From NCBI GenBank assembly GCA_964388775.1, contig CAYMBW010000004.1, positions 1 through 40,995 of the forward strand: a DNA stretch of 40,995 nucleotides, given 5' to 3'. Both the position numbers and the translations under genes were made by a program. Below the pieces are notes generated by a model that made no database searches, had not been told where the DNA came from, and saw nothing but the letters and a program-made list of their open reading frames with translations. The stretch's first letter is position 1. Each line of letters starts with the position of its first letter. Shown in pieces: positions 431 through 12,563 of this stretch. This stretch comes from an uncultured Candidatus Saccharibacteria bacterium. Its GTDB lineage: Bacteria; Patescibacteriota; Minisyncoccia; Minisyncoccales; PEYH01.

Positions 431-1114
431 ATGGAGCAACTCCTGCATCGATTCACTGAGCAAGAGATATTCCAAGAACTAAGAAACGCTGAACGAGAAA
501 ACCGGACCGCAGATTTTTCCAATAAGCTTCTGCCGGAGTTTTCTTTTTCCGGAAAAGAAATAAATACCGGCATAAACCTCAAGGGTTCAACCATCCAAGG
601 CGCTCTTCATTTAGACGAATGCAATATCAAGGGAGATGTTAATTTGGAACAAGCCCTGATTTATGCCACATTATATATTTCAAAAACCGAAATCCAAGGA
701 GAATTTTTTGCCAATCAGATAAGAATCCGCGAAGTTTTGAATATGGTTGCTTCGACTTTCAAAAAGAATATATATATGAAAGAATCGTCCATCAAAGGTT
801 TTTTGGGACTGAACAAAGTGCAAATTGATGGAAACTTGGACATAAGCAAATCCATTATAAGAGACATTGTCACAAAAACAGGCACGATTAGAGGAGATGT
901 TTATCTCCGCGACGCTAAAATCGGCGGTTCGGTAATAGCGACAGAGGTTATGTCGGAAGGACTTGGAAATTTTGAAAGGACGAACATCGCCCAAAATCTT
1001 GACCTTAAAAATTCAAAATTTAAAGAAGTGGTTATCTTAAGCGGGACGATAGTTGAAGGAGAAATTGAGGCCCAAGACCTGCAATGCAAAAGTTTAATCG
1101 CGCATGTATCCTAA
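431..1114 (+). CDS. Hypothetical beta-solenoid / pentapeptide-like repeat protein
   Basis: 227 aa with recurring approximately 17-aa units of the type (L/F)xxxxIxGx(L/V)x(L/F), e.g. LKGSTIQGALHL, LDECNIKGDVNL, LNKVQIDGNLDI, LRDAKIGGSVIA. Confidence 0.6.
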   Translation: MEQLLHRFTEQEIFQELRNAERENRTADFSNKLLPEFSFSGKEINTGINLKGSTIQGALHLDECNIKGDVNLEQALIYATLYISKTEIQGEFFANQIRIREVLNMVASTFKKNIYMKESSIKGFLGLNKVQIDGNLDISKSIIRDIVTKTGTIRGDVYLRDAKIGGSVIATEVMSEGLGNFERTNIAQNLDLKNSKFKEVVILSGTIVEGEIEAQDLQCKSLIAHVS

Positions 1115-1122
1115 ATAGAATT

Positions 1123-4100
1123 ATGTCTCCTGCATTCACCCATCTTCATGTGCATAGCCAATATTCTCTCCTCGATGGACTGCCAAAAATCGAGGAACTT
1201 TTAGATTATGTCAAAAAAAACGATATGGATAGCGTGGCGCTAACCGACCACGGAGTTCTTTACGGCGCGGTAGAGTTTTATAAAAAAGCGAAGCAAGCGG
1301 GAATCAAACCGATAATCGGCTGTGAAGTTTATATGGCCTACGAAAGCATGACCCAAAAAAGGCCAAAAATTGACAGCAAACGTTATCATTTAATCTTGCT
1401 TGTGAAAAATGAAATCGGTTACCGCAATTTGGTAAAAATGGTAAGTAAGTCCCACTTAGAGGGTTTTTATTACAAACCAAGGATAGACGAGGAATTATTG
1501 TTTCAACACGCCGAAGGACTTATTGCCCTTTCCGGCTGTTTACAGGGAAAAATCCCCCGCCTTATAATCTCCGGCCGTATTGAGGAAGCGGAAAAAACAG
1601 CTCTAAAATATCAAAAGGCCTTTGGCAAAGAAAACTTTTACCTGGAAATCCAACATCACGCAAACATTCCGGAACAAAGCAAAATAAATAAGATTCTTAT
1701 AGAATTATCCAAGAAACATAATATTCCTTTGGTGGCCACTAATGACTGCCATTATCTCCGGCCGGACGACGCAGAAGCGCAGGATATTTTGATGCTCATT
1801 AATACCGGCGCAAAGCCGGACGACTCTAACCGCCTCACTATGAGGCAAGACGATTTTTCTATGACGCCACCGAAAGAAATGGCAGAAAATTTTAAAAATG
1901 TCCCTGAAGCGATTAGCAATACTCAAAAAATAGTTGAGGCCTGTAATTTTGAATTCAAATTAGGGGAGATAAAGCTCCCCCATTTTCCGGTGCCAAATCA
2001 AGGCAATCCCGACCAATATTTAAAAAATATCTGCGAGAGAAGATTTGAGAAAAGAAAAAAAGAATTCAAAAACGAAAAAGAATCAAGAGATAGATTGGAC
2101 TATGAGCTGGAAGTTATTGAAAAAACCGGATTCGCTTCCTATTTCCTTATTGTGGCTGATTTTGTTGAGTGGGCAAAGGAAAATAAAATAGTAGTAGGTC
2201 CCGGCCGGGGCAGCGTGGGTGGCTCTTTGGTTGCTTATTTGACCAATATCACCAACATCAATCCCTTGCAATATAACCTTCTTTTTGAAAGATTTTTAAA
2301 TCCAGAAAGAATCTCTATGCCTGATATTGACCTTGATTTTGCCGATACCAGAAGAGACGAGGTTATAGAGTATGTCTCCCGGAAATACGGGCAAGAAAGG
2401 GTTGCTCAAATTATAACATTCGGGACGATGGCTGCCCGGGCAGCGATAAGAGATGTTGGCAGGGTCTTGAAATATCCTTACAGTTTGTGCGATAAAATTG
2501 CCAAAATGGTTCCTTTGGGGTTTGACCTTGACCAAACACTTAAACGAGTGCCCGAGTTCCGCGAAGCATATGAAAACGATGAACAAATTAAGCGACTGAT
2601 TGATTTGTCCAAAAAATTAGAGGGCGTTGCCCGCCATGCTTCGACGCATGCTTGCGGAGTTGTTATTTCCGCAAAACCGCTTGATACTCTTGTCCCCGTC
2701 CAACGGCCAACTCAAAGCGACGGTAATATTATCACTCAATATGAAATGCATTCAATCGAGGACCTGGGTTTGTTAAAAATGGATTTTCTGGGGCTAAAAA
2801 ATCTCACTATGATTGAGGAAGCCATTAAGCTTATTAAGGCAACCCGCGGGGAAAAAATTGAAATTGACGAAATCCCGCAAAATGACAAAAAAACCTATAA
2901 ACTTTTGCAGAAAGCGGAAACTACCTCTATTTTCCAACTGGAAAGTTCCGGTATGAAAAAATGGCTCCGCCAACTTCAACCCTCAACATTTGAAGATATC
3001 TCCACCATGCTTGCCCTTTACCGCCCCGGCCCTATGCAGTTTATTCCCGAGTATGTGGCTCGAAAACAAAAAAAGAAAAAAGTTGAATACCTGCATCCCA
3101 AGCTAAAGCCAATTTTGGAAGCGACTTACGGACTGCCGGTATTTCAGGAACAGATGATGCAAATCGCCAGAGAAATTGCCGGATTTTCGCTTAGTGAGGC
3201 GGATATCCTGCGAAAAGCAATCGGCAAAAAAATCCCCTCTCTCCTACGCGAACAAAAAGAAAAATTCATTTCCGGCGCAATCAAACAGGATGTTGAAAAA
3301 GAAATCGCCCAAAAAATTTGGAGTTGGTTCTTACCTTTCGCCCAATATGGATTTAATAAATGTTTGACTGGAGAGACAAAGATAATCTCTCCCACAGGTC
3401 ATATTAGAACCATTGAAGATGTTTATAACGAAAGCAAACTGAAGAGAGCTTATCGCTATACTGGAAAGTCGGTGATTTCTTTGAACGAAAATTTAAAGTT
3501 TAAAGCTGGCAAAATTTTAGAAATAAACAAAAACGGCAAAAAACCGGTTTACGAAATTACAGCATGCTCGGGGCGAAGAATTAAGGCAACAACAGAACAT
3601 AAATTCCTTATCTTTTCCGGCTGGAAAAAATTAGAAAAACTGAAAAAGGGAGATAGAATTGCTATTGCTCGTTCTTGGCCCACACATAAAATGGCTAAAA
3701 TCAATTGGTCGTGGCATAAAACCGCTCTATTAGGATACGCGTTAAGTGAAGGGAATCTCTGCCATCCGCATGGATTCTATCTCTATACGAATTCTAAAGA
3801 AATGCTTAAAGAATATGTAAAAATCCTTGAAAAATTTAAAAATACTAAAGCAACTGTTTCCGAGAGGAAAGAGATAGAAAAGAGGGGCAGATATTCCGTG
3901 TATGCCGGCAGGATTAATCTTAAACAAAAATCCGAAGCAGTGGACTGGATAATGGATGAGCTTAATTTGAAATATAAAAAAGCTACTCAAAAATTTATTC
4001 CTCTTGACGCTTTTAAACTTGAAAATAATAAATTAGGAGTCCTGCTCGGCGCAATGTGGAATGGAGACGGTTGTATTGATTCTAAAACAGGATCAATCTA

Positions 4101-5697
4101 CTATGCCACTTCATCTCAACAGCTTGCCGAACAAGTTCAAAACCTTCTTTTGCGCTTTGGAATCGTATCAAAATTGCATAAGAAAAAGTTTAATTACCGA
4201 GACACGCAAAAAATAGGTTGGACAATTAATTTTAGCCGTTACGATAATCTTCTTAAATTTTCTGAAAATATAGGGCCTCATCTTATTGATAAAAGGAAAA
4301 GAGACTTTCAACAAATATTGAACACTCATCCGATTTTAAAAATAGACGATGATTCCGTATTGTCTGCCCGAGGCACTTTAGACACGGTACCCACAGAAGT
4401 GATCATAGAAATAAGAAATGAATGCCAGCGCGCAAATATTCCTATGAAAACAGTAGCTGACTGGGCAGGAGTTTCGTATAGGCTTTTTCAAATAGATCGC
4501 CGCAAGAAAGGCCTGCAAAGAGAGACATTATCTAAAATTGCCAATGTCTTAGATTCTGAAAGATTAAAAAATTTGGCTAAATCAGATATTTATTGGGATA
4601 GAATAAAATCTATCAGATACATAGGAAAACAAGAAACATATGACCTTACAATTCAAAAAAATCATAATTTCACAGCCAATGGATTTATTGTTCATAATTC
4701 TCATTCAACGGGTTATGGAATTATCGCCTACCAGACCGCATACCTGAAAGCCAACTACCCGGTAGAATTTATGGCAGCAGTGCTGGCCTCTGAAAAACAA
4801 GACGTTGAAAGAATCGCCTTTCTTCTGGAAGAATGTAAAAGAATGAATATTGAGGTTCTGCCTCCGGATATAAATGAAAGTTTCAAAAACTTTGCGGTTG
4901 TGGATAAGAACAAAATCAGGTTCGGACTTTTAGCCATTAAAAATGTCGGTCATAATATTGTCGAAACAATCGTGAATGAAAGAGCCGCCCACGGGAAATA
5001 TCAATCAATCGGCGATTTTGTAAACAGAACCCTTTCAAAGGATTTAAATAAAAAATCAATGGAAGCGCTGATTAAGACCGGCGCTTTTGATAAATTAGAA
5101 GAAAGAAATATGCTGCTTGGCAATCTGGAACGATTATTAACCTGCTCAAGGGAAATCCAAAACAACAAAAAAAATGGGCAGAAAGGACTTTTTGACGGTT
5201 CCAAAATGAAGACCACTATTAATTTAGAACAAATGGAGCCGGCCGGTGCCGCTGAAAAACTGCAATGGGAAAAAGAATTATTAGGGCTTTTTGTGTCAGG
5301 GCATCCCCTGGAGACATGCCCGAAATCTGTCGCCAAGAAAACGGTTCCTATATCGAAAATTCTCCAAGAACTCACCAAGACAGAAGACCAGCCGGGCTTC
5401 CCTTTGAATGTGCCTGACAAAATATTTAAAAAAATAATGCCCGGAACCCGTCTTAAAATATGCGGATTGATTTCTCGAATTAAAAAGATTATTACTAAAA
5501 GCGGACGCCCGATGTTTTTCGTAAAAATACAGGATTTAACCGGTGAAATTGAAGCAATTATTTTCCCCAACAGCGCGGAGCAATACGCTCACGTCTTGCA
5601 GGAAAATAAAATAGTCATTGTTTCGGGCAGAGTTGATTTTAAAGACGATTCCCCGAAAATGATTGTCGACGGCATTGAAGAAATCATAGAAGAATAA
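1123..5697 (+). CDS. dnaE: DNA polymerase III alpha subunit, intein-containing
   Basis: PHP motif FTHLHVHSQYSLLDG, ALTDHG, GPGRGS, catalytic PDIDLD, YGFNK/SH and a C-terminal OB fold. Start set at ATG 1123, after the upstream stop at 1114. Confidence 0.97.
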   Translation: MSPAFTHLHVHSQYSLLDGLPKIEELLDYVKKNDMDSVALTDHGVLYGAVEFYKKAKQAGIKPIIGCEVYMAYESMTQKRPKIDSKRYHLILLVKNEIGYRNLVKMVSKSHLEGFYYKPRIDEELLFQHAEGLIALSGCLQGKIPRLIISGRIEEAEKTALKYQKAFGKENFYLEIQHHANIPEQSKINKILIELSKKHNIPLVATNDCHYLRPDDAEAQDILMLINTGAKPDDSNRLTMRQDDFSMTPPKEMAENFKNVPEAISNTQKIVEACNFEFKLGEIKLPHFPVPNQGNPDQYLKNICERRFEKRKKEFKNEKESRDRLDYELEVIEKTGFASYFLIVADFVEWAKENKIVVGPGRGSVGGSLVAYLTNITNINPLQYNLLFERFLNPERISMPDIDLDFADTRRDEVIEYVSRKYGQERVAQIITFGTMAARAAIRDVGRVLKYPYSLCDKIAKMVPLGFDLDQTLKRVPEFREAYENDEQIKRLIDLSKKLEGVARHASTHACGVVISAKPLDTLVPVQRPTQSDGNIITQYEMHSIEDLGLLKMDFLGLKNLTMIEEAIKLIKATRGEKIEIDEIPQNDKKTYKLLQKAETTSIFQLESSGMKKWLRQLQPSTFEDISTMLALYRPGPMQFIPEYVARKQKKKKVEYLHPKLKPILEATYGLPVFQEQMMQIAREIAGFSLSEADILRKAIGKKIPSLLREQKEKFISGAIKQDVEKEIAQKIWSWFLPFAQYGFNKCLTGETKIISPTGHIRTIEDVYNESKLKRAYRYTGKSVISLNENLKFKAGKILEINKNGKKPVYEITACSGRRIKATTEHKFLIFSGWKKLEKLKKGDRIAIARSWPTHKMAKINWSWHKTALLGYALSEGNLCHPHGFYLYTNSKEMLKEYVKILEKFKNTKATVSERKEIEKRGRYSVYAGRINLKQKSEAVDWIMDELNLKYKKATQKFIPLDAFKLENNKLGVLLGAMWNGDGCIDSKTGSIYYATSSQQLAEQVQNLLLRFGIVSKLHKKKFNYRDTQKIGWTINFSRYDNLLKFSENIGPHLIDKRKRDFQQILNTHPILKIDDDSVLSARGTLDTVPTEVIIEIRNECQRANIPMKTVADWAGVSYRLFQIDRRKKGLQRETLSKIANVLDSERLKNLAKSDIYWDRIKSIRYIGKQETYDLTIQKNHNFTANGFIVHNSHSTGYGIIAYQTAYLKANYPVEFMAAVLASEKQDVERIAFLLEECKRMNIEVLPPDINESFKNFAVVDKNKIRFGLLAIKNVGHNIVETIVNERAAHGKYQSIGDFVNRTLSKDLNKKSMEALIKTGAFDKLEERNMLLGNLERLLTCSREIQNNKKNGQKGLFDGSKMKTTINLEQMEPAGAAEKLQWEKELLGLFVSGHPLETCPKSVAKKTVPISKILQELTKTEDQPGFPLNVPDKIFKKIMPGTRLKICGLISRIKKIITKSGRPMFFVKIQDLTGEIEAIIFPNSAEQYAHVLQENKIVIVSGRVDFKDDSPKMIVDGIEEIIEE
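3361..4698 (+). mobile_element. DnaE intein (446 aa) with LAGLIDADG homing endonuclease
   Basis: Starts CLTGETKII after YGFNK; block B ATTEHKF; LAGLIDADG motifs LLGYALSEG and LLGAMWNGDG; ends TYDLTIQKNHNFTANGFIVHN followed by extein Ser (SHS). Confidence 0.95.
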
Positions 5698-5704
5698 AAC
5701 AATG

Positions 5705-5713
5705 TGCTATAAT
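5705..5713 (+). promoter_or_regulatory. Extended -10 promoter element upstream of the arginine decarboxylase gene
   Basis: TGCTATAAT (TGn-TATAAT) about 38 nt upstream of ATG 5751. Confidence 0.55.
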
Positions 5714-5750
5714 AAAAAATCTTTTAATATTCAATAAATACTAAAAATAC

Positions 5751-6248
5751 ATGTCAGAAAATGTCGAAAAACAAAATTTAAATATCTATATAGCTACTGG
5801 CACAGGAGAAGGGAAAACAAAAATCTCTGCCTTTGATGCCGCATTAATGAATGCCGGTATCGCCAATTATAACTTAATTTATCTATCTTCGGTTATCCCC
5901 AAATCTTCAATCATAAAAATTAGGAAAATAAAACCCAAGAAAAATGAGTATGCCAATAAGCTCTATCTGGTCATAGCTCGTTTTGACCAAAGCACTATCG
6001 GAAAAGAAGCGTGGGCTGGATTAGGATGGATTCAAGACAGAGAAGGTCGAGGATTGTTCGCCGAACATTGGGCAGAGAGTAAAGAAGCAGTAATCAAGCT
6101 AATTCATAATTCTTTAAATGAAATGAGAGAATTAAGGCCCTATAAATATGGAAAAATCTACTACTCTGTAGCGGGCGCGAGATGTAAAGATAGACCGGTC
6201 TGCGCTGTTGTAGCGGCTACATATAAAAGTGAAAATTGGGAAAAATAA
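5751..6248 (+). CDS. pdaD: Pyruvoyl-dependent arginine decarboxylase
   Basis: GTGEGxTxxSAFDAALxxAGIANYNLIYLSSVIP signature with the Ser-Ser autocleavage site; GLFAEH; C-terminal CAVVAATY. Confidence 0.88.
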   Translation: MSENVEKQNLNIYIATGTGEGKTKISAFDAALMNAGIANYNLIYLSSVIPKSSIIKIRKIKPKKNEYANKLYLVIARFDQSTIGKEAWAGLGWIQDREGRGLFAEHWAESKEAVIKLIHNSLNEMRELRPYKYGKIYYSVAGARCKDRPVCAVVAATYKSENWEK

Positions 6249-6293
6249 AAAAAGAGGGTAGCTCGGCTCGAAAAACTCGAGACAAACTACCCT
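6245..6293 (-). terminator. Intrinsic terminator between convergent pdaD and the GNAT-like gene
   Basis: Minus strand agggtagtttgtctcgagtttttcgagccgagctaccct followed by ctttttttattttt. Confidence 0.7.
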
Positions 6294-6307
6294 ATTATTG
6301 TCTACTG

Positions 6308-6838
6308 CTATCCGCCCCATTGATATATGCGATATACCTGTGTGTCTAATGTTTCTCCTTCTATTGATCTATGTAAGGCCCTTTTTGCAAACAAAGGAAT
6401 TGCTCTATTGGCCGTTTGGGAATAATCGAAAGCCACAGCCCCACTTTCGGGTAAAGAGCAAATCATTTTTTCTAAGAGCTTAGCACCCAATGCCATGCTA
6501 GCGACATCGATCTTTACAGCAATACCTACCAAGTAATAGAGCAATCCCCTATTAATAGGTTCCGGAAACTTCTTCTGGAAAAAAGAGATGTTGATCCATG
6601 GAACTTTTTCTAGGTGGTTGGTGATAATCCCAATGCCTGCCGGTTTTTCTTCTACGAAAAGGACAAATTTCTGGAAATCTCTGTCCTTCATTGCCTCCAG
6701 AAATTCCTCTTTATGACAGTGTTGCCTGCAAGGAGTTTCAGCGTTTACTGCTTGAAATGTTGCGTCATACATCTCCCATAGCTCTCTTCGGAGCGTTGTG
6801 TCGGAGATGCAGAGTTCCTTCTTGATATCGAGAATCAC
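6308..6838 (-). CDS. Hypothetical GNAT-fold acyltransferase-like protein
   Basis: Layout of helix (LWEMYDATF), helix (EEFLEAMKD), strands KFVLFVEEKPAGIGII and LLYYLVGIAV, then a motif-A-like helix MALGAKLLEKMI. AGGAGG at 6852-6847 favours the GTG at 6838 over 6847. Confidence 0.6.
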   Translation of the reverse strand: MILDIKKELCISDTTLRRELWEMYDATFQAVNAETPCRQHCHKEEFLEAMKDRDFQKFVLFVEEKPAGIGIITNHLEKVPWINISFFQKKFPEPINRGLLYYLVGIAVKIDVASMALGAKLLEKMICSLPESGAVAFDYSQTANRAIPLFAKRALHRSIEGETLDTQVYRIYQWGG

Positions 6839-6856
6839 AAATATCACCTCCTAATC

Positions 6857-7237
6857 TTAATAGAATTTGAAATAGACAAAATACCCTATCGAGCCACTAA
6901 TCCATACCCAAATCCCAAGATGAACATACCAGCGCAAATTCTTCCCTACTACCTCGATATAGAGATAAGGCGATGCCCATGCCAATCGATTGATAAGCAA
7001 TCCCCAAATCAACGAGCTATTGGTGAAACTTAATTCACTGAAATCAAAGCGAATCAAATCTCCTAAGCCGATTGAGAAAATGCCACTTCCTCTTAACATA
7101 AGGTAAATCCCGAAATAGTATGGTAGAAAACTGAAAAGATAGATAATGATAAAAGTCATGGGGTTGACATTATGACTTTTAGCCCTATCGTTCAATTTAC
7201 TACATTTTTCTTTCAAAAACCTGATAATCATCACCAT
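6857..7237 (-). CDS. Small integral membrane protein (about 3 hydrophobic segments), unknown function
   Basis: 126 aa; hydrophobic segments TFIIIYLFSFLPYYFGIYLML, LIWGLLINRLAWASPYLYI, WYVHLGIWVWISGSIGYFVYF; AGGAGG SD at 7248-7243. Confidence 0.7.
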   Translation of the reverse strand: MVMIIRFLKEKCSKLNDRAKSHNVNPMTFIIIYLFSFLPYYFGIYLMLRGSGIFSIGLGDLIRFDFSELSFTNSSLIWGLLINRLAWASPYLYIEVVGKNLRWYVHLGIWVWISGSIGYFVYFKFY

Positions 7238-7288
7238 CGCATCCTCCTATTCAATTCTTTATTAAAAATTGTCAAAAAATCTAAATTA

Positions 7289-7317
7289 AGATTAACACAA
7301 TTATCTTTAATAGTCAA
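7289..7317 (-). promoter_or_regulatory. Putative sigma70 promoter for the membrane protein-GNAT operon
   Basis: Minus strand TTGACT-N17-TAATCT with TG extension, in the 82-bp divergent spacer before the kinase. Confidence 0.5.
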
Positions 7318-7319
7318 AT

Positions 7320-8930
7320 ATGATAATAATCGTCCAAATTATTCCTCTCTTAATTATCGGGGTTACTCTCATATTAGGAATAGCCATATTATTACACAGT
7401 CCACGTAAGAGGCCCAATCAAGTGTTGGCTGGTATAGTATTAAGTTCTGCTTTTTGGGTCTTCGCAAACTTAATGGTAGATATGGCCAAAAATGATACAG
7501 CAGTGCTTCGATGGAGTCGGCTGACACTTCTGGGACCCATTTTAATTCCTTTTCTATTTCTTTATTTCTCTTATATTTTCCCTCGTTCTTCAAAAATAAA
7601 TAAACTAAAATGGTTTTTTATTTTCCTTCCCATCGTCTTGCTATTTTTTGTGCCAACTCACTTCAATATTCAAGAAGTATACTTTGTCTCGGGTAGCATT
7701 CCTCAAGTAATTCCGGGAATATTATATGTGCCATTTTTTATCTATTTCGCAAGTTATGTTGCTATTGCTCTTTACAATTTTTTAAAAAACATAAAACGAT
7801 CCTCGACGCTTGAAAAAAAACAGATACAATATGTAATTATTGGAACAGTTTTGACCGTTTCGATAGGCCTTATCACTAATGTTTTATTGTTATCCTTTGG
7901 TATTCCCGAAGCTTCCAGTTTTGGCCCATACGCAACAATTTTCTGGACTGTTTTCCTTTCATTAGCTATTCTTAAGCACCACCTTTTTGACATTAAGGTT
8001 ATTGCCACAGAGTTATTTACGGCCCTGTTAATTATATTGCTCTTTATTAATATTTTTTCTTACAACAGTTTAAGCCAACTTATTCTAAACATTGCAATCT
8101 TCATAGGAACAATAATCTTTGGCATCTTTTTAATTAAATCTGTCTTTCGGGAAGTCAAAATACGAGAAGAAAAAGAAAAATTAGCCCTGGAGTTAGAGTT
8201 GGCAAATGCGAAATTAAAAAAACTTGACCAGGCAAAATCAGAGTTTTTGTCCATTGCCTCGCACCAGTTGCGCACTCCCCTTTCTGTGATTAAAGGATAT
8301 CTCTCAATGGTTCTTGAAGGGACTTATGGAAAAATCTCCAAAAAAGTGAAAAAACCGATAAATAATGTTTTCCAAGCAAGTAAACAATTAAATCAGTTGG
8401 TTAATACGCTTCTGAACGTTTCCCGCATTGAGGCCGGGAAGATAAAATTAGAAGCGAGCCCAATGTCCATTAAGGAGGTGCTTGAGCCAATAACCGAAGA
8501 ATTCAAAATAGTAGCAGAAGAAAAAGGCCTATATCTTAATCTTTCAATCTCCGATTCCCTGCCTCTAATTCCTCTGGACAAGGAAAAGATGAATCAGGTT
8601 GTAATGAATATTATTGATAATGCTATTAAATATACTGAAAGAGGGGGCATCACCATAAAATGTAAAATGAAAAATGAAAAATTAAAAATAATGATATCAG
8701 ATACTGGACTGGGTATGGATAAAAAACAATTGACTGAAATATTCCAAAAATTCAGCCGAGGGACGGCCGGAGAGACCCACTGGTCAAACGGAGCCGGTTT
8801 GGGAATGTATATCGCCAAAGAATTCACGGAACTGCATAAGGGAAAAATCTGGGCTGAATCAAAAGGCCAGGGCAAGGGCTCAACCTTTAATATTGAACTT
8901 CCTGTAAATTTGAGTACAATAAAGGATTAA
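7320..8930 (+). CDS. Sensor histidine kinase with N-terminal multi-TM (HisKA_7TM-like) domain
   Basis: About 280-aa hydrophobic N-terminus, H-box SEFLSIASHQLRTPL, N-box NIIDNAIKYT, G1 DTGLGM, F-box IFQKF, G2 GAGLGMYI, GKGSTF. Confidence 0.93.
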   Translation: MIIIVQIIPLLIIGVTLILGIAILLHSPRKRPNQVLAGIVLSSAFWVFANLMVDMAKNDTAVLRWSRLTLLGPILIPFLFLYFSYIFPRSSKINKLKWFFIFLPIVLLFFVPTHFNIQEVYFVSGSIPQVIPGILYVPFFIYFASYVAIALYNFLKNIKRSSTLEKKQIQYVIIGTVLTVSIGLITNVLLLSFGIPEASSFGPYATIFWTVFLSLAILKHHLFDIKVIATELFTALLIILLFINIFSYNSLSQLILNIAIFIGTIIFGIFLIKSVFREVKIREEKEKLALELELANAKLKKLDQAKSEFLSIASHQLRTPLSVIKGYLSMVLEGTYGKISKKVKKPINNVFQASKQLNQLVNTLLNVSRIEAGKIKLEASPMSIKEVLEPITEEFKIVAEEKGLYLNLSISDSLPLIPLDKEKMNQVVMNIIDNAIKYTERGGITIKCKMKNEKLKIMISDTGLGMDKKQLTEIFQKFSRGTAGETHWSNGAGLGMYIAKEFTELHKGKIWAESKGQGKGSTFNIELPVNLSTIKD

Positions 8931-8940
8931 ACATAAAATT

Positions 8941-10662
8941 ATGAAATTAGAAATATTGAGGCATTCTTTATCGCACATAATGGCAGCAGCGGTCCAGGAG
9001 TTATATTCCGGGACTAAATTTGGCATTGGACCGGCGATAGAAAACGGATTCTACTACGATTTTGATTTGCCGAAGCAGATATCAGAAAGCGAATTCCCGG
9101 AGATCGAGAAAAAAATGAGAGAGATTATCAAAAAAAATCTGCCGTTTCGCAAAAAACAAATCAGCAAGGTTGAAGCAAAAAAAATATTTAAGGACCAGCC
9201 GTATAAATTAGAACTAATAGATGAATTGGCTAAGAGCGGTTCTAAAATCAGCATCTATCAGGTTGGCAATTTTATTGATTTATGCAAAGGCCCTCACTTA
9301 AAATCAACAAAAGAAATTTCTCCGGACAGCTTCAAACTCACCAAGGTTGCTGGCGCATATTGGCGCGGACAAGAGAGAAACAAAATGCTCACCAGGATTT
9401 ACGGAACCGGTTGGGGGAAAAAACAGGAACTCAATAAATATTTGGAAAATATTGAAAAGGCGGAGCAAAGAGACCACAGGGTTTTAGGCAGCAAACTGGA
9501 ACTCTTTATGTTTGATGAGGAAGTGGGAGCCGGTCTCCCAATCTGGATGCCCAAAGGAGCAATGCTAAAACATATCATTGAAGGATATTTGTATGAGCAA
9601 TTATACAAGGCAGGATACCAATGGCTTAGTTCTCTTCACATCGCTAATCTCAACCTCTGGAAAACCTCGGGTCATTGGGGGTTTTATCGGGAGAATATGT
9701 ATGCCCCTATTAAGATTGACGATGAGGAATATATGCTCAAACCGATGAATTGTCCGTTCCATATCAAGGTCTATAATTATAAAATCAGAAGTTATAAAGA
9801 CCTGCCTATCAGATTTGCCGAGCTTGGCACGGTTTACCGGTATGAAAAATCAGGGGTCTTGCACGGATTGGCGCGCGTAAGAGGCTTCACTCAAGACGAC
9901 GCCCACATATTCTGCGCTCCGGAGCAATTATCCGAAGAACTTTTCAAAACCATAAAACTGGCTATCAAAATGCTGAGCGATTTTGGCTTCAAAAATTACC
10001 AAATCTATCTTTCCACTCAACCGGAAAAGTATGTTGGCACTGATGAAATTTGGAACAAGGCAACCAAGGCGCTGAAATACGCCCTTGATACGTTAAAAAT
10101 AGATTATGAGATGGATAAGGGAGGTGGAGCGTTTTACGGCCCCAAAATTGACATTAAGATAAAAGATAGTTTGGGCCGGCCTTGGCAATGCACTACTATC
10201 CAAGTTGATTTCAACCTGCCGCAAAGATTTAAAATGTCGTATATTGACGAGAAAGGCAAGAAGCAAGAGCCCATTATGATACACCGCGCTCTTTTAGGGG
10301 CGATGGAGAGATTTATTGCTATGCTAATAGAGCATACCGGTGGCGCTTTCCCGTTATGGCTTTCCCCTGTCCAAGTATGGGTTTTGCCAATTGGGCAAAA
10401 GCACGAAAAATACGCCCAAAAAATAACCGATGAATTGCAAGAAACCGGGTTCAGAGCAGAAATAAGAAACGAGAACGAAACTATTGGCAAAAAAATCAGA
10501 AACGGCGAGATTCAAAAAATCCCGTATATTTTAGTTGTCGGAGATAAGGAAATAGAAAATAAAACCGTAAGGGTCAGGGAAAGAAACAAAGGAGACATCG
10601 GCGAAACCTCGCTCCTTTCTCTTATCAAAAAGCTTAAATTAGAACTACAAAAAAAGAAATAA
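8941..10662 (+). CDS. thrS: Threonine--tRNA ligase (lacks N-terminal TGS domain)
   Basis: RHSLSH editing motif, DLCKGPH, RDHR, KPMNCP, RVRGFTQDDAHIF, FYGPKID, HRALLG. Confidence 0.97.
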   Translation: MKLEILRHSLSHIMAAAVQELYSGTKFGIGPAIENGFYYDFDLPKQISESEFPEIEKKMREIIKKNLPFRKKQISKVEAKKIFKDQPYKLELIDELAKSGSKISIYQVGNFIDLCKGPHLKSTKEISPDSFKLTKVAGAYWRGQERNKMLTRIYGTGWGKKQELNKYLENIEKAEQRDHRVLGSKLELFMFDEEVGAGLPIWMPKGAMLKHIIEGYLYEQLYKAGYQWLSSLHIANLNLWKTSGHWGFYRENMYAPIKIDDEEYMLKPMNCPFHIKVYNYKIRSYKDLPIRFAELGTVYRYEKSGVLHGLARVRGFTQDDAHIFCAPEQLSEELFKTIKLAIKMLSDFGFKNYQIYLSTQPEKYVGTDEIWNKATKALKYALDTLKIDYEMDKGGGAFYGPKIDIKIKDSLGRPWQCTTIQVDFNLPQRFKMSYIDEKGKKQEPIMIHRALLGAMERFIAMLIEHTGGAFPLWLSPVQVWVLPIGQKHEKYAQKITDELQETGFRAEIRNENETIGKKIRNGEIQKIPYILVVGDKEIENKTVRVRERNKGDIGETSLLSLIKKLKLELQKKK

Positions 10663-10664
10663 AA

Positions 10665-11108
10665 ATGAAAACCGCCCATAATACAATTTCTCTTCAGACG
10701 AAAGAAAGATTAGATATTGTAAATATCACGGATGATATCAAAAATTACATTGCCCGGACAGCGATTAAAGATGGTATTATAAACATCCAAACTCGACATA
10801 CTACTGCAACGATTTTGGTTAATGAAAGCGAACCGGAACTATGGAAAGATTTTAAAAATCATTTGGAAAAACTTGCTCCCGCGACAGAAAAATACCACCA
10901 CGATAATCTGGAAATAAGAACCGTTAATGTCTGCGAAGATGAATGCCAAAACGGACATTCTCACTGCAAGGCATTGCATCTGCCAACCAATATATGCCTT
11001 AATATAATTGATGGACAACTCCAATTGGGACAATGGCAAAGCATTCTATCCATTGAATTAGACCACGCCAGAAAAAGACAAATCCAGCTACAAATCATCG
11101 GAGAATAA
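10665..11108 (+). CDS. yjbQ: YjbQ/UPF0047 family protein
   Basis: HTTATILVNE, Y-H-H-D, NGHSH and LGQWQSI motifs. Confidence 0.85.
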   Translation: MKTAHNTISLQTKERLDIVNITDDIKNYIARTAIKDGIINIQTRHTTATILVNESEPELWKDFKNHLEKLAPATEKYHHDNLEIRTVNVCEDECQNGHSHCKALHLPTNICLNIIDGQLQLGQWQSILSIELDHARKRQIQLQIIGE

Positions 11109-11150
11109 TTGGTCAGTAATTATTTATCATTAATCAATAATCAGTAATCA
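11109..11150. repeat. Degenerate heptamer array (NTAATCA), 6 units
   Basis: ttggtca gtaatta tttatca ttaatca ataatca gtaatca. Confidence 0.75.
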
Positions 11151-11225
11151 GTGGCGGCCTTTACTGGGGCGCTTTTTTGTTTTAAGATTGGAGAATAATA
11201 ATTGCCCGCGCCTTATTGAAAAATT

Positions 11226-12563
11226 ATGAAATATCATACTATCACTTATGGGTGCCAAATGAATAAATCAGACAGCGAAAGGATTGCCGGGGCGCTTAAT
11301 GTTCTTGGCTTTAATAAAACCACTAATGCAGACAAGGCGGATTTAGTTATTTTTAATCTATGTTCAATCAGGCAATCAGCCATAGACAGAGCAATTAGCA
11401 AAATTAAAAATTTTGCTGAATCCAAAATCCAAATATCAAATATTAAATCAAGCCCCAAACCTAAAATTCTCCTAACCGGATGCATCTTAAACAAAAATAA
11501 AAGAAAACTCGAAAAAGTTTGCGATGGGATTTTTAAGATAGATGACCTACTGGAATTGCCGACCATTCTGAAAAAAATCGGACTTAAAACAACAAAAAAT
11601 CCGAATTCTAAAATCAGACATTATCTTGATATAAAACCTGATTATGAGATAGGGCCGAGCGCTTATATTCCAATAATGACCGGGTGTAATAATTTCTGCT
11701 CTTATTGTGTGGTTCCCTATACCCGCGGAAGAGAAATTTCCCGGCCGGCAAAAGATATTTTATGCGAAATCAAAACTCTGGTAAAAAAGGGGGTAAAGGA
11801 AATCTGGCTGCTGGGACAGAATGTCAACAGCTACGAGTCCAAAGTCCAAAATGTAAGAGAAATTGATTTTGCGGAGTTGCTGAAAATGGTTAATAATATT
11901 AAAGGAAATTTTTGGATTAGATTTACTTCTTCGCATCCAAAGGATTTGACTAATGAAATGATTGAATCATTCGTTAAATGTCAAAAAGCCACTCCCTATC
12001 TTAATCTGCCTATCCAGTCAGGTAATGATGAAATTCTGAAGGCGATGAACAGGCCCTATTCTGTTGAAAAATACAAAAAATTGATTAAAAAAACGCGCCA
12101 GACCTTTAAAAAATATCGTAAGGGCCAAGAAAAAATCCTTTCTCTTTCCACTGATGTGATAGTTGGTTTTCCCGGTGAAACCAAGAAACAATTTCAGGAT
12201 ACAAAAAAAACCTTGAAAGAAATTGGTTTCGCCGCCGGATACATTTCGCCCTACTCTCCCCGCCCCCAATCAACTGCCTTCAAACTGAAGGACAATATAT
12301 CGCCATCTGAAAAACGAAAAAGAAAAAAAGAATTAGTAAAAATAATAGAAAACAGCGCTTTGAGATTTAATAAACAATTTGTCGGGAAGAATGTAGAGGT
12401 CTTGGTGTTTGACAAAAAAAATGATTTTTTTCTCGGCAAAACCCGCCACCACCAGGTAATAAAATTCCTTTCAGATAAAGACCTTGTTGATAAGTTTATA
12501 AACTTAAAAGTGACAAAAGCGACCGCCTATGGTCTTCAAGGTGAACTAACCAAGGTCTGTTGA
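11226..12563 (+). CDS. miaB: tRNA-2-methylthio-N6-dimethylallyladenosine synthase (radical SAM methylthiotransferase)
   Basis: TYGCQMNKSDSE, radical SAM motif CNNFCSYC, DVIVGFPGET, C-terminal TRAM domain; adjacent to miaA. Confidence 0.92.
   Translation: MKYHTITYGCQMNKSDSERIAGALNVLGFNKTTNADKADLVIFNLCSIRQSAIDRAISKIKNFAESKIQISNIKSSPKPKILLTGCILNKNKRKLEKVCDGIFKIDDLLELPTILKKIGLKTTKNPNSKIRHYLDIKPDYEIGPSAYIPIMTGCNNFCSYCVVPYTRGREISRPAKDILCEIKTLVKKGVKEIWLLGQNVNSYESKVQNVREIDFAELLKMVNNIKGNFWIRFTSSHPKDLTNEMIESFVKCQKATPYLNLPIQSGNDEILKAMNRPYSVEKYKKLIKKTRQTFKKYRKGQEKILSLSTDVIVGFPGETKKQFQDTKKTLKEIGFAAGYISPYSPRPQSTAFKLKDNISPSEKRKRKKELVKIIENSALRFNKQFVGKNVEVLVFDKKNDFFLGKTRHHQVIKFLSDKDLVDKFINLKVTKATAYGLQGELTKVC

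Follow-up and report, generated by a model that had tools for sequence, protein, structure and literature searches.

A candidate module for making and sensing a modified amine between dnaE and thrS of a small Patescibacteria genome

Four genes between dnaE and thrS

The window, the 40,995-nucleotide stretch of DNA analysed here, lies on contig C4 of the tiny genome (588 kb, completeness given as 100) of a lake bacterium. Gene layout confirmed that the interval between dnaE (1084–5697, + strand) and thrS (8941–10662, +) holds the four genes of the original prediction: those for an arginine decarboxylase, a GNAT-fold protein, a membrane protein and a kinase. The first, pdaD (5751–6248, +), encodes a 165-amino-acid homologue of pyruvoyl-dependent arginine decarboxylases. 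Its stop lies 59 bp from that of the minus-strand gene for a divergent GNAT-fold acyltransferase of an unnamed family (6308–6847, 179 amino acids); since pdaD converges on the GNAT operon, the two are not co-transcribed. The GNAT gene had been placed at 6308–6838; the gene is present, but its start was called at a GTG codon at 6847, and 6838 is an alternative start at residue 4. The Atlas record also uses 6838. Upstream in the same operon, with 9 bp between its stop and the GNAT start, is the gene for a small membrane partner (6857–7237, −, 126 amino acids, about three hydrophobic segments). The coordinates also bore out the predicted divergence of this two-gene operon from a multi-TM kinase gene (7320–8930, +, 536 amino acids) across 82 bp (7238–7319); 10 bp separate the kinase gene from thrS. 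A promoter scan returned sites no more often than in shuffled sequences and none with both hexamers within 7238–7319, and this region had no Rfam match. Each of the four lake metatranscriptome libraries compared contained contigs that match the GNAT and membrane genes at 99–100% identity. RNA-library contigs covered 6322–6748, 6600–6941 and 6617–6824 on the GNAT gene and 6884–7091 on the membrane gene, and the 6600–6941 contig bridges both genes.

PdaD matched Pfam PvlArgDC at E 3.5e-21 (76.2 bits; cut-off 22.7) but, unlike known pyruvoyl enzymes, scored under the NCBIfam equivalog cut-offs (53.6 versus 106.95 and 39.2 versus 207). It aligned with the M. jannaschii PvlArgDC structures (1n2m, 2qqd) at E 1.2e-8 and retains the Ser-Ser self-cleavage site (S46–S47) as well as Asp, Asn and Glu at the corresponding positions, residues that we take to serve self-cleavage and catalysis. 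The same catalytic motifs are kept by the pdaD genes of similar loci in other lineages. From family and motifs, we infer that the window's PdaD is a decarboxylase.

Neither the 179- nor the 126-residue protein matched a Pfam or NCBIfam family at E ≤ 0.01. For the 179-residue protein, the sole match at E ≤ 10 was Acetyltransf_1 (E 0.019), and at that threshold neither the LuxI nor the FeeM family matched its sequence; no polyamine acetyltransferase model recognised its family, which comprises 751 representative clusters at E ≤ 1e-3. Fold prediction was more informative. The AF2 model (pLDDT 80.1, pTM 0.80) had 161 PDB matches at E ≤ 0.001, all of them GNATs among the matches listed, and VIA structural comparison gave Z scores of up to 14.3. 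The model therefore bears out a GNAT fold for the 6308–6847 protein, which had been a guess from sequence. Comparison with the signal synthases gave a divided answer: FeeM (PDB 2g0b, Z 13.3 over 160 residues) and LasI (PDB 1ro5, Z 12.4 over 164) share the fold and are among the longest alignments, but ordinary acetyltransferases matched as well or better (Z 14.3). By our reading of the sequences, the usual CoA-binding loop appears degenerate in the window's protein, which counts against the pathway proposed below, and a CoA-type R-x-x-G-x-A/S loop appears to be kept in many members of its family. A search for close homologues of the 126-residue protein gave five; it also shares homology with the N-terminal portion of fused membrane–GNAT proteins of about 300 residues (BLASTP against P0019: E 7e-11, 33% over 102 residues).

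The kinase contains the Pfam domains HisKA_7TM (E 6.9e-16), HisKA and HATPase_c. Its sensor is the HisKA_7TM seven-helix bundle (residues 1–225; 7320–7994). The remainder (7995–8930) consists of two more membrane helices (225–245 and 251–289 in the model, also seen as hydrophobic segments), the DHp domain (HisKA, 305–373) and HATPase_c (420–529), without a receiver domain. In the AF2 model of residues 1–290 (pLDDT 84.6, pTM 0.76), the membrane part takes the shape of a GPCR-like bundle that exposes just one short beta-hairpin loop beyond the membrane. The 50 VIA matches listed (Z 17.9–13.7) were without exception 7TM domains of GPCRs or designed folds that resemble them; Foldseek matches were weak (best E 4e-3). 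The kinase had been called an orphan, and locally it is one: no receiver gene adjoins it, and contigs C1, C2 and C3 hold all five receiver domains of the genome, C4 none. All five are stand-alone, without DNA-binding output, and two lack an adjoining kinase gene: the first is on C3, flanked on both sides by type IV pilus ATPase genes, and the second on C2.

The genome had no Arginase-fold, PAD_porph or Spermine_synth match anywhere, so the lack of a polyamine context, originally noted for the neighbourhood, extends genome-wide; by these searches, no agmatinase, agmatine deiminase, spermidine synthase or other canonical agmatine-consuming enzyme was found. None of the four genes encodes an Arg/agmatine antiporter. 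Since the genome also had no CoaE match, the acyl donor is uncertain. The only carrier protein that the genome encodes lies in unrelated surroundings, and Patescibacteria are generally not known to synthesize fatty acids.

Recurrence of the gene set

A profile of the GNAT family matched 8 of 401 Patescibacteria genomes, in seven GTDB families including the window's own. A HisKA_7TM kinase gene adjoins the GNAT gene in all seven other loci, and a decarboxylase gene does so in six, three of them encoding PvlArgDC and three a LysA-like PLP enzyme that matched TIGR03099 (E 1e-37 to 4e-32). At the seventh locus, where no decarboxylase was seen, the contig starts 1.3 kb upstream. The two decarboxylase types appear to be a case of non-homologous displacement; because the type varies, the amine may differ between lineages and need not be agmatine. 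Gene order is changed among the loci of the six other families. In control HisKA_7TM loci without the module, a pdaD, module-type PLP decarboxylase or GNAT gene was found within 3–5 kb in 0 of 19. Module kinases also cluster in a kinase tree, with 4 label changes compared with 8.4 in shuffles; none of 500 shuffles had so few. In this tree, the kinase of the window shares a group with those of modules in two further families (G246, G424), and the one that occupies the dnaE–thrS position of G071, a member of the window's own family, lies outside it.

Within the genus, pdaD, GNAT and kinase genes are all present in the window's genome (G000) and in G201, and all three are missing from G179, G202 and G203. 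In G179 and G202, dnaE directly abuts thrS. The block thus comes and goes as one unit. Directly upstream of the G201 kinase gene is a homologue of GAMT (1xcj, E 1e-32), which would fit a guanidino substrate. At the same dnaE–thrS position, G071 carries its HisKA_7TM kinase with a methyltransferase and without pdaD or GNAT. Contigs of several assemblies break at this spot.

The gene set also occurs in Actinomycetota, culturable ones among them. From 209 pattern matches, 167 encoded relatives and 80 loci were kept. In 75 of these, pdaD lies directly upstream of the GNAT gene, within 1.5 kb; the other 5 lack a decarboxylase beside it. The same polytopic N-terminal domain was found in 77 of 80; it precedes a kinase core at 65 loci and a GGDEF domain at 14, and a profile of the kinase N-termini matched those of the GGDEF proteins (E 2.8e-13, 1.8e-9 and 9.2e-6; reversed controls, E > 6). 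Pfam scans of 12 loci confirmed PvlArgDC, hybrid kinases, Hpt proteins, receivers and GGDEF–EAL proteins. Homology between the sensor membrane domains of Patescibacteria and Actinomycetota was undetectable (hmmsearch E ~1; hhalign probability 0.1%). The proposed co-occurrence of GNAT, pdaD and a sensor, kinase or GGDEF/EAL, thus holds across phyla. In relatives, the GNAT domain is also fused to the small membrane protein, an MFS exporter (elsewhere adjacent), a SAM methyltransferase, a second GNAT domain in tandem or a FeeM domain. The last fusion, P0092 from Margulisiibacteriota, carries a true FeeM domain (PF21926, E 3.6e-11; weak match to TIGR03694, E 3.4e-4) ahead of its GNAT domain.

Relation to known systems

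In Vibrio and Legionella, an autoinducer synthase is encoded beside a polytopic receptor kinase (LuxM–LuxN, CqsA–CqsS, LqsA–LqsS), with relay through LuxU (Hpt) and LuxO. The window has the same arrangement, a putative small-molecule synthase gene adjoining that of a multi-pass kinase without a large periplasmic domain, and the actinobacterial versions, with hybrid kinases and separate Hpt and receiver genes, resemble the LuxU/LuxO relay. The likeness is one of arrangement: the module's chemistry is a decarboxylase plus a GNAT, unlike LuxM or the CqsA-type PLP acyltransferase, and its sensor is HisKA_7TM, GPCR-like in the model. The CoA-type loop that many family members appear to keep is a further difference from FeeM and LuxI enzymes, which need none. 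The PEP-CTERM/exosortase set comprises a PLP decarboxylase (TIGR03099), a FeeM-like acyltransferase (TIGR03694) and the membrane kinase PrsK, according to the TIGRFAMs descriptions; we know of no experimental characterization of this set. In this set, as in the modules with a PLP enzyme, a multi-pass membrane kinase is linked with a LysA-like decarboxylase and an acyltransferase of the GNAT fold. However, the module's PLP decarboxylases fall far below the TIGR03099 cut-off (111–149 bits versus 478), the window's GNAT does not match TIGR03694 and the module lacks an exosortase context.

Known pyruvoyl arginine decarboxylases include archaeal PdaD, which serves polyamine synthesis, and Chlamydia AaxB, which works with the antiporter AaxC. 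The window's PdaD shares their family and catalytic motifs, but its genome, unlike the archaeal system, has no agmatinase, agmatine deiminase or aminopropyltransferase match and, unlike AaxB–AaxC, its block has no antiporter gene. With SpeG, PaiA, BltD and AgmNAT, the window's GNAT shares the fold and, as proposed here, a small cationic amine substrate; an exporter beside or fused with the acetylase in module relatives recalls BltD with the Blt exporter. The module's GNAT nevertheless belongs to a different, unnamed sequence family and comes with a membrane anchor as well as a decarboxylase and a membrane sensor of its own. Drosophila AgmNAT is a GNAT able to make N-acetylagmatine (PMC5647378).

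Proposed pathway and alternatives

Judged by comparative genomics, decarboxylase, GNAT and sensor are very probably functionally coupled; the evidence throughout is association of genes. That the four genes form one module, in which a modified amine is made at the membrane and coupled to a receptor kinase, we rate at about an even chance. The set looks like an undescribed module for making a modified amine and sensing it; no description of such a module was found in the literature searched. In the proposed pathway, PdaD would self-cleave to form its pyruvoyl group and convert arginine to agmatine. Because no enzyme of the genome was found to take agmatine on to putrescine or spermidine, the adjacent GNAT-fold enzyme would take agmatine as its substrate. 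The 3-TM partner, fused to this enzyme in relatives, would hold it at the membrane. The GNAT would N-acylate agmatine with an acetyl or perhaps a longer chain, and the product would leave the cell, as the MFS exporters of relatives may indicate, or remain in the membrane. The divergently encoded kinase would then read it; as its sensor exposes just one short loop, the ligand would probably bind within the membrane. The kinase may phosphorylate a stand-alone receiver, the pilus-flanked receiver on C3 and the unpaired one on C2 being candidates. Our favoured reading is this closed loop, in which the kinase's ligand would be the module's own product, presumably N-acyl(acetyl)-agmatine. Besides the degenerate CoA-binding loop, several observations speak against the pathway: the convergent orientation of pdaD, the missing CoaE match, the loci with no decarboxylase beside the GNAT gene, the variable decarboxylase type, the many HisKA_7TM kinases outside the module, that of G071 included, the undetected homology between the two kinds of sensor and the lack of a neighbouring receiver gene. 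The original acyl-agmatine circuit for quorum or host signalling is, as a whole, partly supported; each of its points that sequence analysis can probe was borne out.

A possible but doubtful alternative is that the kinase responds to a cue from outside or from the envelope (pH, osmolarity, host contact or an exogenous amine) and that amine metabolism runs without self-sensing. The kinase would control, or merely accompany, production of N-acetyl- or N-acyl-agmatine, and the product would protect the cell, serve as a compatible solute or be exported to act on the host, and would not be the kinase ligand. A kinase adjoining pathway genes is equally typical of regulators and receptors, and HisKA_7TM kinases occur mostly without the module (169 of the 401 genomes, versus 8 with the GNAT), as at the G071 junction. 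An OmpR-type regulator follows the GNAT gene in three actinobacterial loci (L055, L111, L116), as in ordinary regulated operons, and the MFS exporters would suit an exported product of this kind. However, transcriptional control of the operon by the kinase has no evident route, because the genome's receivers are stand-alone and without DNA-binding output. Retention of the polytopic sensor across outputs and phyla fits a dedicated receptor better than a generic stress sensor, and genomes of the genus that have lost the enzymes have lost the kinase too. We consider it unlikely that the module remodels the membrane or envelope, with the anchored GNAT moving a long acyl chain or acting on a lipid or envelope component, so as to yield a cationic agmatine-containing lipid or modified scavenged lipids while the sensor monitors membrane state. 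The tethering of the GNAT, the FeeM fusion of one relative, the long FeeM and LasI alignments, the almost wholly intramembrane sensors and an LPG_synthase_C gene between kinase and GNAT in G281 are consistent with such a role. Against it stand the equal or better fit of plain acetyltransferases, the lack of FeeM or LuxI sequence membership, the lone carrier protein in a lineage presumably devoid of fatty-acid synthesis, and the MFS fusions, which suggest a soluble exported product.

Polyamine homeostasis or detoxification is less probable still: the cell would use agmatine as its polyamine, and the GNAT, as a SpeG/PaiA/BltD-like acetylase, would inactivate the excess for export, or the genes would serve acid resistance as an arginine decarboxylase system. 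The structural matches of the GNAT model include polyamine acetyltransferases (PaiA 1tiq; 5k9n, 8a9n), the MFS next to or fused with the GNAT resembles B. subtilis blt–bltD, and a spermidine-synthase-like gene lies about 3.5 kb from the module in G517 and G475. Yet a detoxifying acetylase needs neither a dedicated decarboxylase nor a membrane sensor kept across two phyla, the block is dispensable in the genus, unlike a sole polyamine source, and both the missing antiporter and the failure of polyamine acetyltransferase models to recognise the family argue against this role. Very improbable is that four unrelated accessory genes happen to share a variable spot. The dnaE–thrS junction is indeed variable, empty in G179 and G202, otherwise occupied in G071 and the site of contig breaks, but chance assembly is already contradicted by the recurrence of the same families, in changed order, in six other Patescibacteria families and in Actinomycetota, and by the control-locus counts; the gene fusions of the GNAT domain also speak against it.

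The four-gene block and its products

The window is contig C4 of a genome (G000) that comprises 588 kb in 19 contigs, with a completeness rating of 100%. Close homologues of the window's proteins carry a Patescibacteria label, and the stretch is present in lake-water metagenomes. Gene coordinates and Pfam searches bore out exactly the layout of four genes between dnaE and thrS given in the original prediction. dnaE (1084–5697, with an intein and LAGLIDADG domain inside) is followed by the PvlArgDC-family gene pdaD (5751–6248, + strand), a gene for a 179-aa protein (6308–6847, − strand), a gene for a 126-aa hydrophobic protein (6857–7237, − strand) and a kinase gene with HisKA_7TM, HisKA and HATPase_c domains (7320–8930, + strand), after which lies thrS (8941–10662). 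pdaD converges on the 179-aa gene across 59 bp; the latter forms an operon with the membrane gene (9-bp gap), which diverges from the kinase gene across 82 bp, and 10 bp separate the kinase gene from thrS. That the block is a mobile element encoding an integrase or transposase of its own was also considered and rejected, as no such domain occurs in the four genes or their flanks.

PdaD scored 76.2 bits against Pfam PvlArgDC (cut-off 22.7). In alignments with the M. jannaschii enzyme (1n2m, 2qqd), D29, N41, S46-S47 and the Glu of F-A-E-H match up with D35, N47, S52/S53 and E109, which we take to be the self-cleavage and catalytic or substrate residues. The Ser-Ser self-cleavage site is thereby kept, and the motifs are also kept in seven module or related PdaD proteins, other lineages included. 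The assignment as a pyruvoyl arginine decarboxylase stands as to Pfam family and catalytic motifs, but the score falls below the NCBIfam equivalog cut-offs (53.6 versus 106.95), so that arginine specificity is read solely from family and motifs. Genome-wide searches of G000 found no Arginase-fold agmatinase, agmatine deiminase or spermidine synthase, which leaves agmatine without a canonical onward route and extends to the whole genome the missing polyamine context that had been claimed for the locus. The absence of an Arg/agmatine antiporter likewise held: no transporter is encoded among the four genes or the dnaE and thrS flanks, and the window locus does not show the antiporter beside the decarboxylase that marks arginine-dependent acid resistance; an MFS gene does occur in the module of one relative (G475).

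The 179-aa protein matched no curated family; its score against Acetyltransf_1 (15.6 bits, E 0.019) lies under the Pfam gathering cut-off of 20.7, and 17 of 47 members of its family matched that model at E ≤ 0.01. An AlphaFold (AF2) model built with 10 relatives (pLDDT 80.1, pTM 0.80) has the GNAT alpha/beta fold, with 161 PDB matches at E ≤ 0.001, all of those listed being GNATs, in agreement with the original GNAT-like call. VIA, a structure comparison against the PDB, gave Z scores up to 14.3 over residues 2–179; FeeM (Z 13.3, 160 aligned) and LasI (Z 12.4, 164 aligned) were among the matches, where rows within about 1 Z of one another count as tied. LasI and FeeM share the fold but match no better than ordinary acetyltransferases, so that the fold does not point to a particular acyl donor. 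The protein also differs in sequence membership from LuxI, FeeM and the known polyamine acetyltransferase families; in Pfam it belongs to neither LuxI nor FeeM, and Acetyltransf_1 was the sole listing at E ≤ 10. The loop by which GNATs bind the pyrophosphate of acyl-CoA reads Q/R-x-x-G-x-G/A after strand 4. By eye, this region reads S-M-A-L-G-A-K in the window protein, R-A-L-G-S-R in its close relatives, and R-H-K-G-F-A or R-N-Q-G-F-A in fused relatives; the family profile matched PDB acetyltransferases over the CoA-loop region only (E 0.0019). With regard to acyl supply, no CoaE match was found in G000, and the genome has one stand-alone carrier protein (86 aa), encoded beside tgt at locus L134 (C2:26000–38000). 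At the same locus lie an AbiEi/AbiEii toxin-antitoxin pair and a gene for a UvrD-type helicase/PD-(D/E)XK nuclease that matches an intein-splicing domain.

The 126-aa protein has about three hydrophobic segments and is homologous (E 7e-11) to the N-terminal part of approximately 300-aa proteins that carry the same GNAT domain at their C-terminus, which by homology marks it as the putative membrane anchor of the GNAT enzyme, split off as a separate gene. Fusion partners of the GNAT domain among relatives include the small membrane protein, an MFS transporter, a SAM methyltransferase, a FeeM domain and a second GNAT copy, as is expected for a small-molecule pathway whose product is further modified and exported. 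In the FeeM fusion, a 422-aa protein of Candidatus Margulisiibacteriota (P0092), this GNAT domain follows a genuine N-acyl amino acid synthase domain of the FeeM family (PF21926, 43.5 bits); PF21926 is matched solely by that separate N-terminal domain. Through this fusion the family extends into a third phylum and gains a link to the chemistry of lipo-amino acids.

The kinase has nine hydrophobic segments and the domain order of the HisKA_7TM class, an N-terminal 7TM domain (PF16927, 59.2 bits, cut-off 28.6) followed by HisKA (57.2) and HATPase_c (86.5). In PMC5847659, HisKA_7TM is listed among sensor domains for which no ligand is known. A model of residues 1–290 (18 sequences; pLDDT 84.6, pTM 0.76) consists of a bundle of seven helices, a single short beta-hairpin loop and two more helices running into the DHp. 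In the full PDB comparison with VIA, all 50 listed rows were GPCR seven-helix domains or designed GPCR-like folds, with about 210–225 residues aligned and Z from 17.9 (rmsd 3.2, 208 aligned) down to 13.7, on a scale where helical bundles may reach Z of about 14 by chance; Foldseek matches were weak (best E 4e-3, TM 0.49). The modelled sensor is likely to have a GPCR-like topology, for which we claim no homology, with a pocket inside the membrane.

Genome G000 encodes three kinases and five receivers. All receivers are stand-alone (123–128 aa in the four with ORFs scanned), and none of the five lies on the window contig, in keeping with the description of the kinase as an orphan. Within the loci L136 (G000:C3:36000–41000) and L138 (G000:C1:8000–13000), one receiver gene that has no neighbouring kinase is flanked by genes for PilB-like and PilT-like ATPases, and a second stands in a row of kinase, receiver and PilB genes. 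A further receiver gene, on C2, likewise has no neighbouring kinase. The output of two-component systems in this organism seems to be tied to type IV pili. In another Patescibacteria genome (G284), genes for a receiver, a pilin-like protein and a prepilin peptidase come after the module kinase. Given these arrangements, type IV pili are a reasonable guess, and no more, for the output of the module kinase.

Recurrence of the block in two phyla

The GNAT family is large yet sparse: a search of 1.84 billion proteins gave 751 representative clusters at E ≤ 1e-3. It was found in 1 of 201 genomes of the window's order, namely the window's own, and in 8 of 401 genomes across the phylum; in the class of genome G517, 5 of 351 genomes have it, and these belong to one family. 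Neighbourhoods of about 8 kb on each side of the GNAT gene (less at contig ends) were scanned against Pfam for the seven other phylum-level matches, which fall into six other families. A HisKA_7TM kinase adjoins the GNAT gene in every one of the seven, and a decarboxylase in six: PvlArgDC in G517, G475 and G281, and a PLP-dependent Orn/DAP/Arg-type enzyme in G284, G246 and G424. The seventh locus, in G330, is not fully judgeable, as its contig begins 1.3 kb ahead of the GNAT gene. The PLP enzymes resemble LysA, score under the lysA cut-off, and also match an exosortase-associated decarboxylase model. Gene order and strands vary, and interspersed genes include the MFS transporter (G475), a membrane protein (G517), receivers (G284, G281) and LPG_synthase_C (G281). 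That unrelated decarboxylase folds swap beside the same kind of GNAT and kinase is a classic mark of a functional unit. HisKA_7TM kinases themselves are common (169 of 401 genomes); at 19 control loci, taken from genomes or places without the GNAT, none had pdaD, a module-type PLP decarboxylase or a GNAT within 3–5 kb, and five had a receiver. Co-occurrence, on which the original prediction had been staked, was thus upheld in Patescibacteria.

A broad GNAT alignment searched against genome contigs returned four Comamonas stretches that were rejected as spurious (31% identity over 41 residues), and against metagenome contigs only two close relatives. A word-index protein search gave 22 proteins without useful taxonomy, one of ten clusters being named (Margulisiibacteriota). 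A protein atlas contained unannotated look-alike clusters, for which Actinomycetota were the commonest source, and a narrower alignment of high-GC members yielded 167 confirmed stretches in species genomes, of which 80 loci were kept (Cellulosimicrobium, Isoptericola, Promicromonospora, Nocardia, Micropruina, Nocardioides, Microlunatus and Desertihabitans, and MAGs). A profile of the window-clade GNATs matched all nine actinobacterial GNATs tested (E 3e-24 to 5e-16), with no reversed control matched. Pfam analysis of 12 chosen loci revealed PvlArgDC directly upstream of the GNAT gene, an upstream hybrid kinase of about 340 unassigned polytopic residues, PAS, HisKA, HATPase_c and mostly then receivers, and divergent receiver and Hpt genes; in three of the 12, a gene for an OmpR-type regulator lies downstream. 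The place of the kinase is taken by a GGDEF or GGDEF-EAL protein in Nocardia and two other lineages.

Of the 80 loci, 75 have pdaD no more than 1.5 kb from the GNAT gene, none has a PLP decarboxylase at E ≤ 1e-4, and 77 have the polytopic N-terminal domain, the remaining three being short contigs; the search across phyla for pdaD together with sensor genes (kinase, GGDEF/EAL) thus came out positive. The domain (about 320–430 residues, for example L065:3551–4570 and L108:7612–8571 among loci L055–L133) precedes a kinase core in 65 loci and GGDEF in 14. Profiling the N-terminal regions of the kinases gave matches to the N-termini of GGDEF proteins (E 2.8e-13, 1.8e-9 and 9.2e-6; reversed controls E > 6), so that one sensor domain is kept through a change of output. 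It had no Pfam match at E ≤ 0.001 and no NCBIfam match at E ≤ 0.01. No homology with the HisKA_7TM region was detected, with hmmsearch E values of about 1, equal to reversed controls, and an hhalign probability of 0.1%.

Close relatives of G000 differ in whether they carry the block. Within its genus, G201 has pdaD (77% identity), the GNAT gene and the kinase (61%), while G179, G202 and G203 are without all three. dnaE directly abuts thrS in G179 and G202; the G203 junction was left out, as thrS was not found there. Among genomes from the family's other genera, G204 shows pdaD at one contig end and the kinase at another, with no GNAT found, and G071 reads dnaE, methyltransferase, HisKA_7TM kinase (40% identity), thrS. 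In a tree of 30 kinases, made by a quick method, unrooted in effect and with some long branches, the module-linked kinases cluster, requiring four label changes versus 8.4 in shuffles (0 of 500 shuffles as low). The window kinase falls in with module kinases from two further families (G246, G424), apart from the kinase of G071 in the same position, which suggests from sequence relationships that the block came with its own kinase. A quick GNAT tree of 122 rows places the actinobacterial sequences in one clade (97) and scatters those of Patescibacteria through deep clades; neither donor nor direction of transfer is readable from it.

A second contig of G201 (L048, G201:C12, 7448–8796) carries, upstream of the kinase, an intact homologue of guanidinoacetate N-methyltransferase (GAMT; E 1e-32 to 1xcj), pdaD remnants in two broken pieces and part of a kinase N-terminus (58 residues), and represents either a recombination scar of two module variants or a strain mix in the assembly. 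The presence in the module of an enzyme that methylates guanidino groups is in line with a substrate made from arginine; G000 has no GAMT homologue at E ≤ 1. Assemblies break repeatedly within the module (contig ends at L010, L011, L049, L007 and L008): G201 C3 begins inside the membrane gene, the end of G204 C1 falls within pdaD and that of C8 a short way upstream of the kinase, and the metagenome contigs L007 and L008 begin at or just ahead of the GNAT and membrane genes. These breaks suggest strain-level variation or repeats at the module site.

A candidate amine signal and its rivals

As far as comparative genomics can establish, we are confident that the decarboxylase, GNAT and polytopic sensor are functionally coupled. 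In the mechanism that we consider most likely, arginine would be decarboxylated to agmatine, agmatine would be N-acylated at the membrane, and the acylated product would be released and read by the receptor-like kinase. The original prediction of an undescribed N-acyl-agmatine (or related) quorum or host-signalling circuit gains from the layout, the GNAT fold, the recurrence and the missing polyamine context, but acylation of agmatine and the release and sensing of the product are steps that we infer. The module resembles the synthase and polytopic-kinase pairs of Vibrio and Legionella, the actinobacterial version even having a hybrid kinase, Hpt and receiver relay; no homology with them was seen. 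To the uncharacterized exosortase-associated decarboxylase/acyltransferase set it bears a resemblance at sub-threshold scores only. No description of the module was found in the literature searched (HisKA_7TM, Patescibacteria, acyl-agmatine and pdaD topics; subscription journals lay outside its coverage). The gene layout of the original prediction is confirmed and its interpretation supported in part; we regard the module as an undescribed variant of the synthase-receptor kind.

Chance neighbourhood of the four genes is practically excluded: synthase and receptor genes are linked at 7/7 Patescibacteria and 77/80 actinobacterial loci, and at 0/19 controls. The main rival grants the same pathway and has the kinase sense something other than its product; HisKA_7TM kinases are widespread at places without the GNAT. 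The two minor rivals are membrane-lipid modification, which would suit a membrane-anchored acyltransferase and the LPG_synthase_C gene of one locus, and polyamine housekeeping.

Under the signalling reading, the module links a receptor in the membrane to a brief pathway that runs from an amino acid through an amine to an acylated amine, and it would bear on how ultra-small, host-dependent Patescibacteria perceive their surroundings, a matter on which little is known. Its breadth spans several Patescibacteria families, and Actinomycetota with other receptors and outputs (phosphorelay, c-di-GMP), and it would provide a working function for three families without a library name: the GNAT, the small membrane partner and the actinobacterial sensor domain. 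Since the module occurs in culturable Cellulosimicrobium, Isoptericola and Promicromonospora, product and sensing can be tested at the bench, and results from these genera could carry over to uncultured lineages. Actinomycetota include known hosts of some Patescibacteria. A bolder proposal, which we consider improbable, is that the decarboxylase-GNAT pair makes acylated (in some lineages methylated) guanidino-amines as a signalling chemistry common to ultra-small Patescibacteria and Actinomycetota, read via polytopic receptors (in Patescibacteria a GPCR-like seven-helix bundle on a histidine kinase); the tiny cell would make, mimic or eavesdrop on its partner's amine signal, coupling it to stand-alone receivers and type IV pili. 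If true, bacteria would possess an aminergic receptor system of GPCR fold, and symbiont-host communication would gain its first molecular handle.

RNA-library coverage and flanking features

A promoter and terminator scan of 5600–9000 was uninformative: promoter-like sites were fewer than in shuffles, and the single terminator-like site falls within the kinase gene. Rfam, including guanidine riboswitches, gave no match at E ≤ 1 across 5500–9100. Four lake metatranscriptome libraries searched with 4500–11500 contained four contigs at 99–100% identity, all on the GNAT and membrane genes (6322–6748, 6600–6941, 6617–6824 and 6884–7091), one of which crosses the junction between the two. These contigs indicate presence in RNA libraries, with DNA carry-over possible; none was seen on dnaE, pdaD, the kinase gene or thrS, an absence of cover that says nothing on expression.

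The dnaE intein spans approximately 3361–4704 (protein residues ~760–1207), with a LAGLIDADG homing-endonuclease domain. The dnaE orthologues of L007 (1078 aa) and G071 (1076 aa) are without it, and that of G179 keeps it, the alignment spanning residues 10–1530. A gene for a 227-aa protein (431–1114) overlaps the dnaE start by 31 bp and is kept upstream of dnaE in relatives; its weak pentapeptide-repeat and bactofilin matches are both under Pfam cut-offs. GC skew, about zero before ~14 kb, is strongly negative from there to the window end (−0.15 to −0.27).
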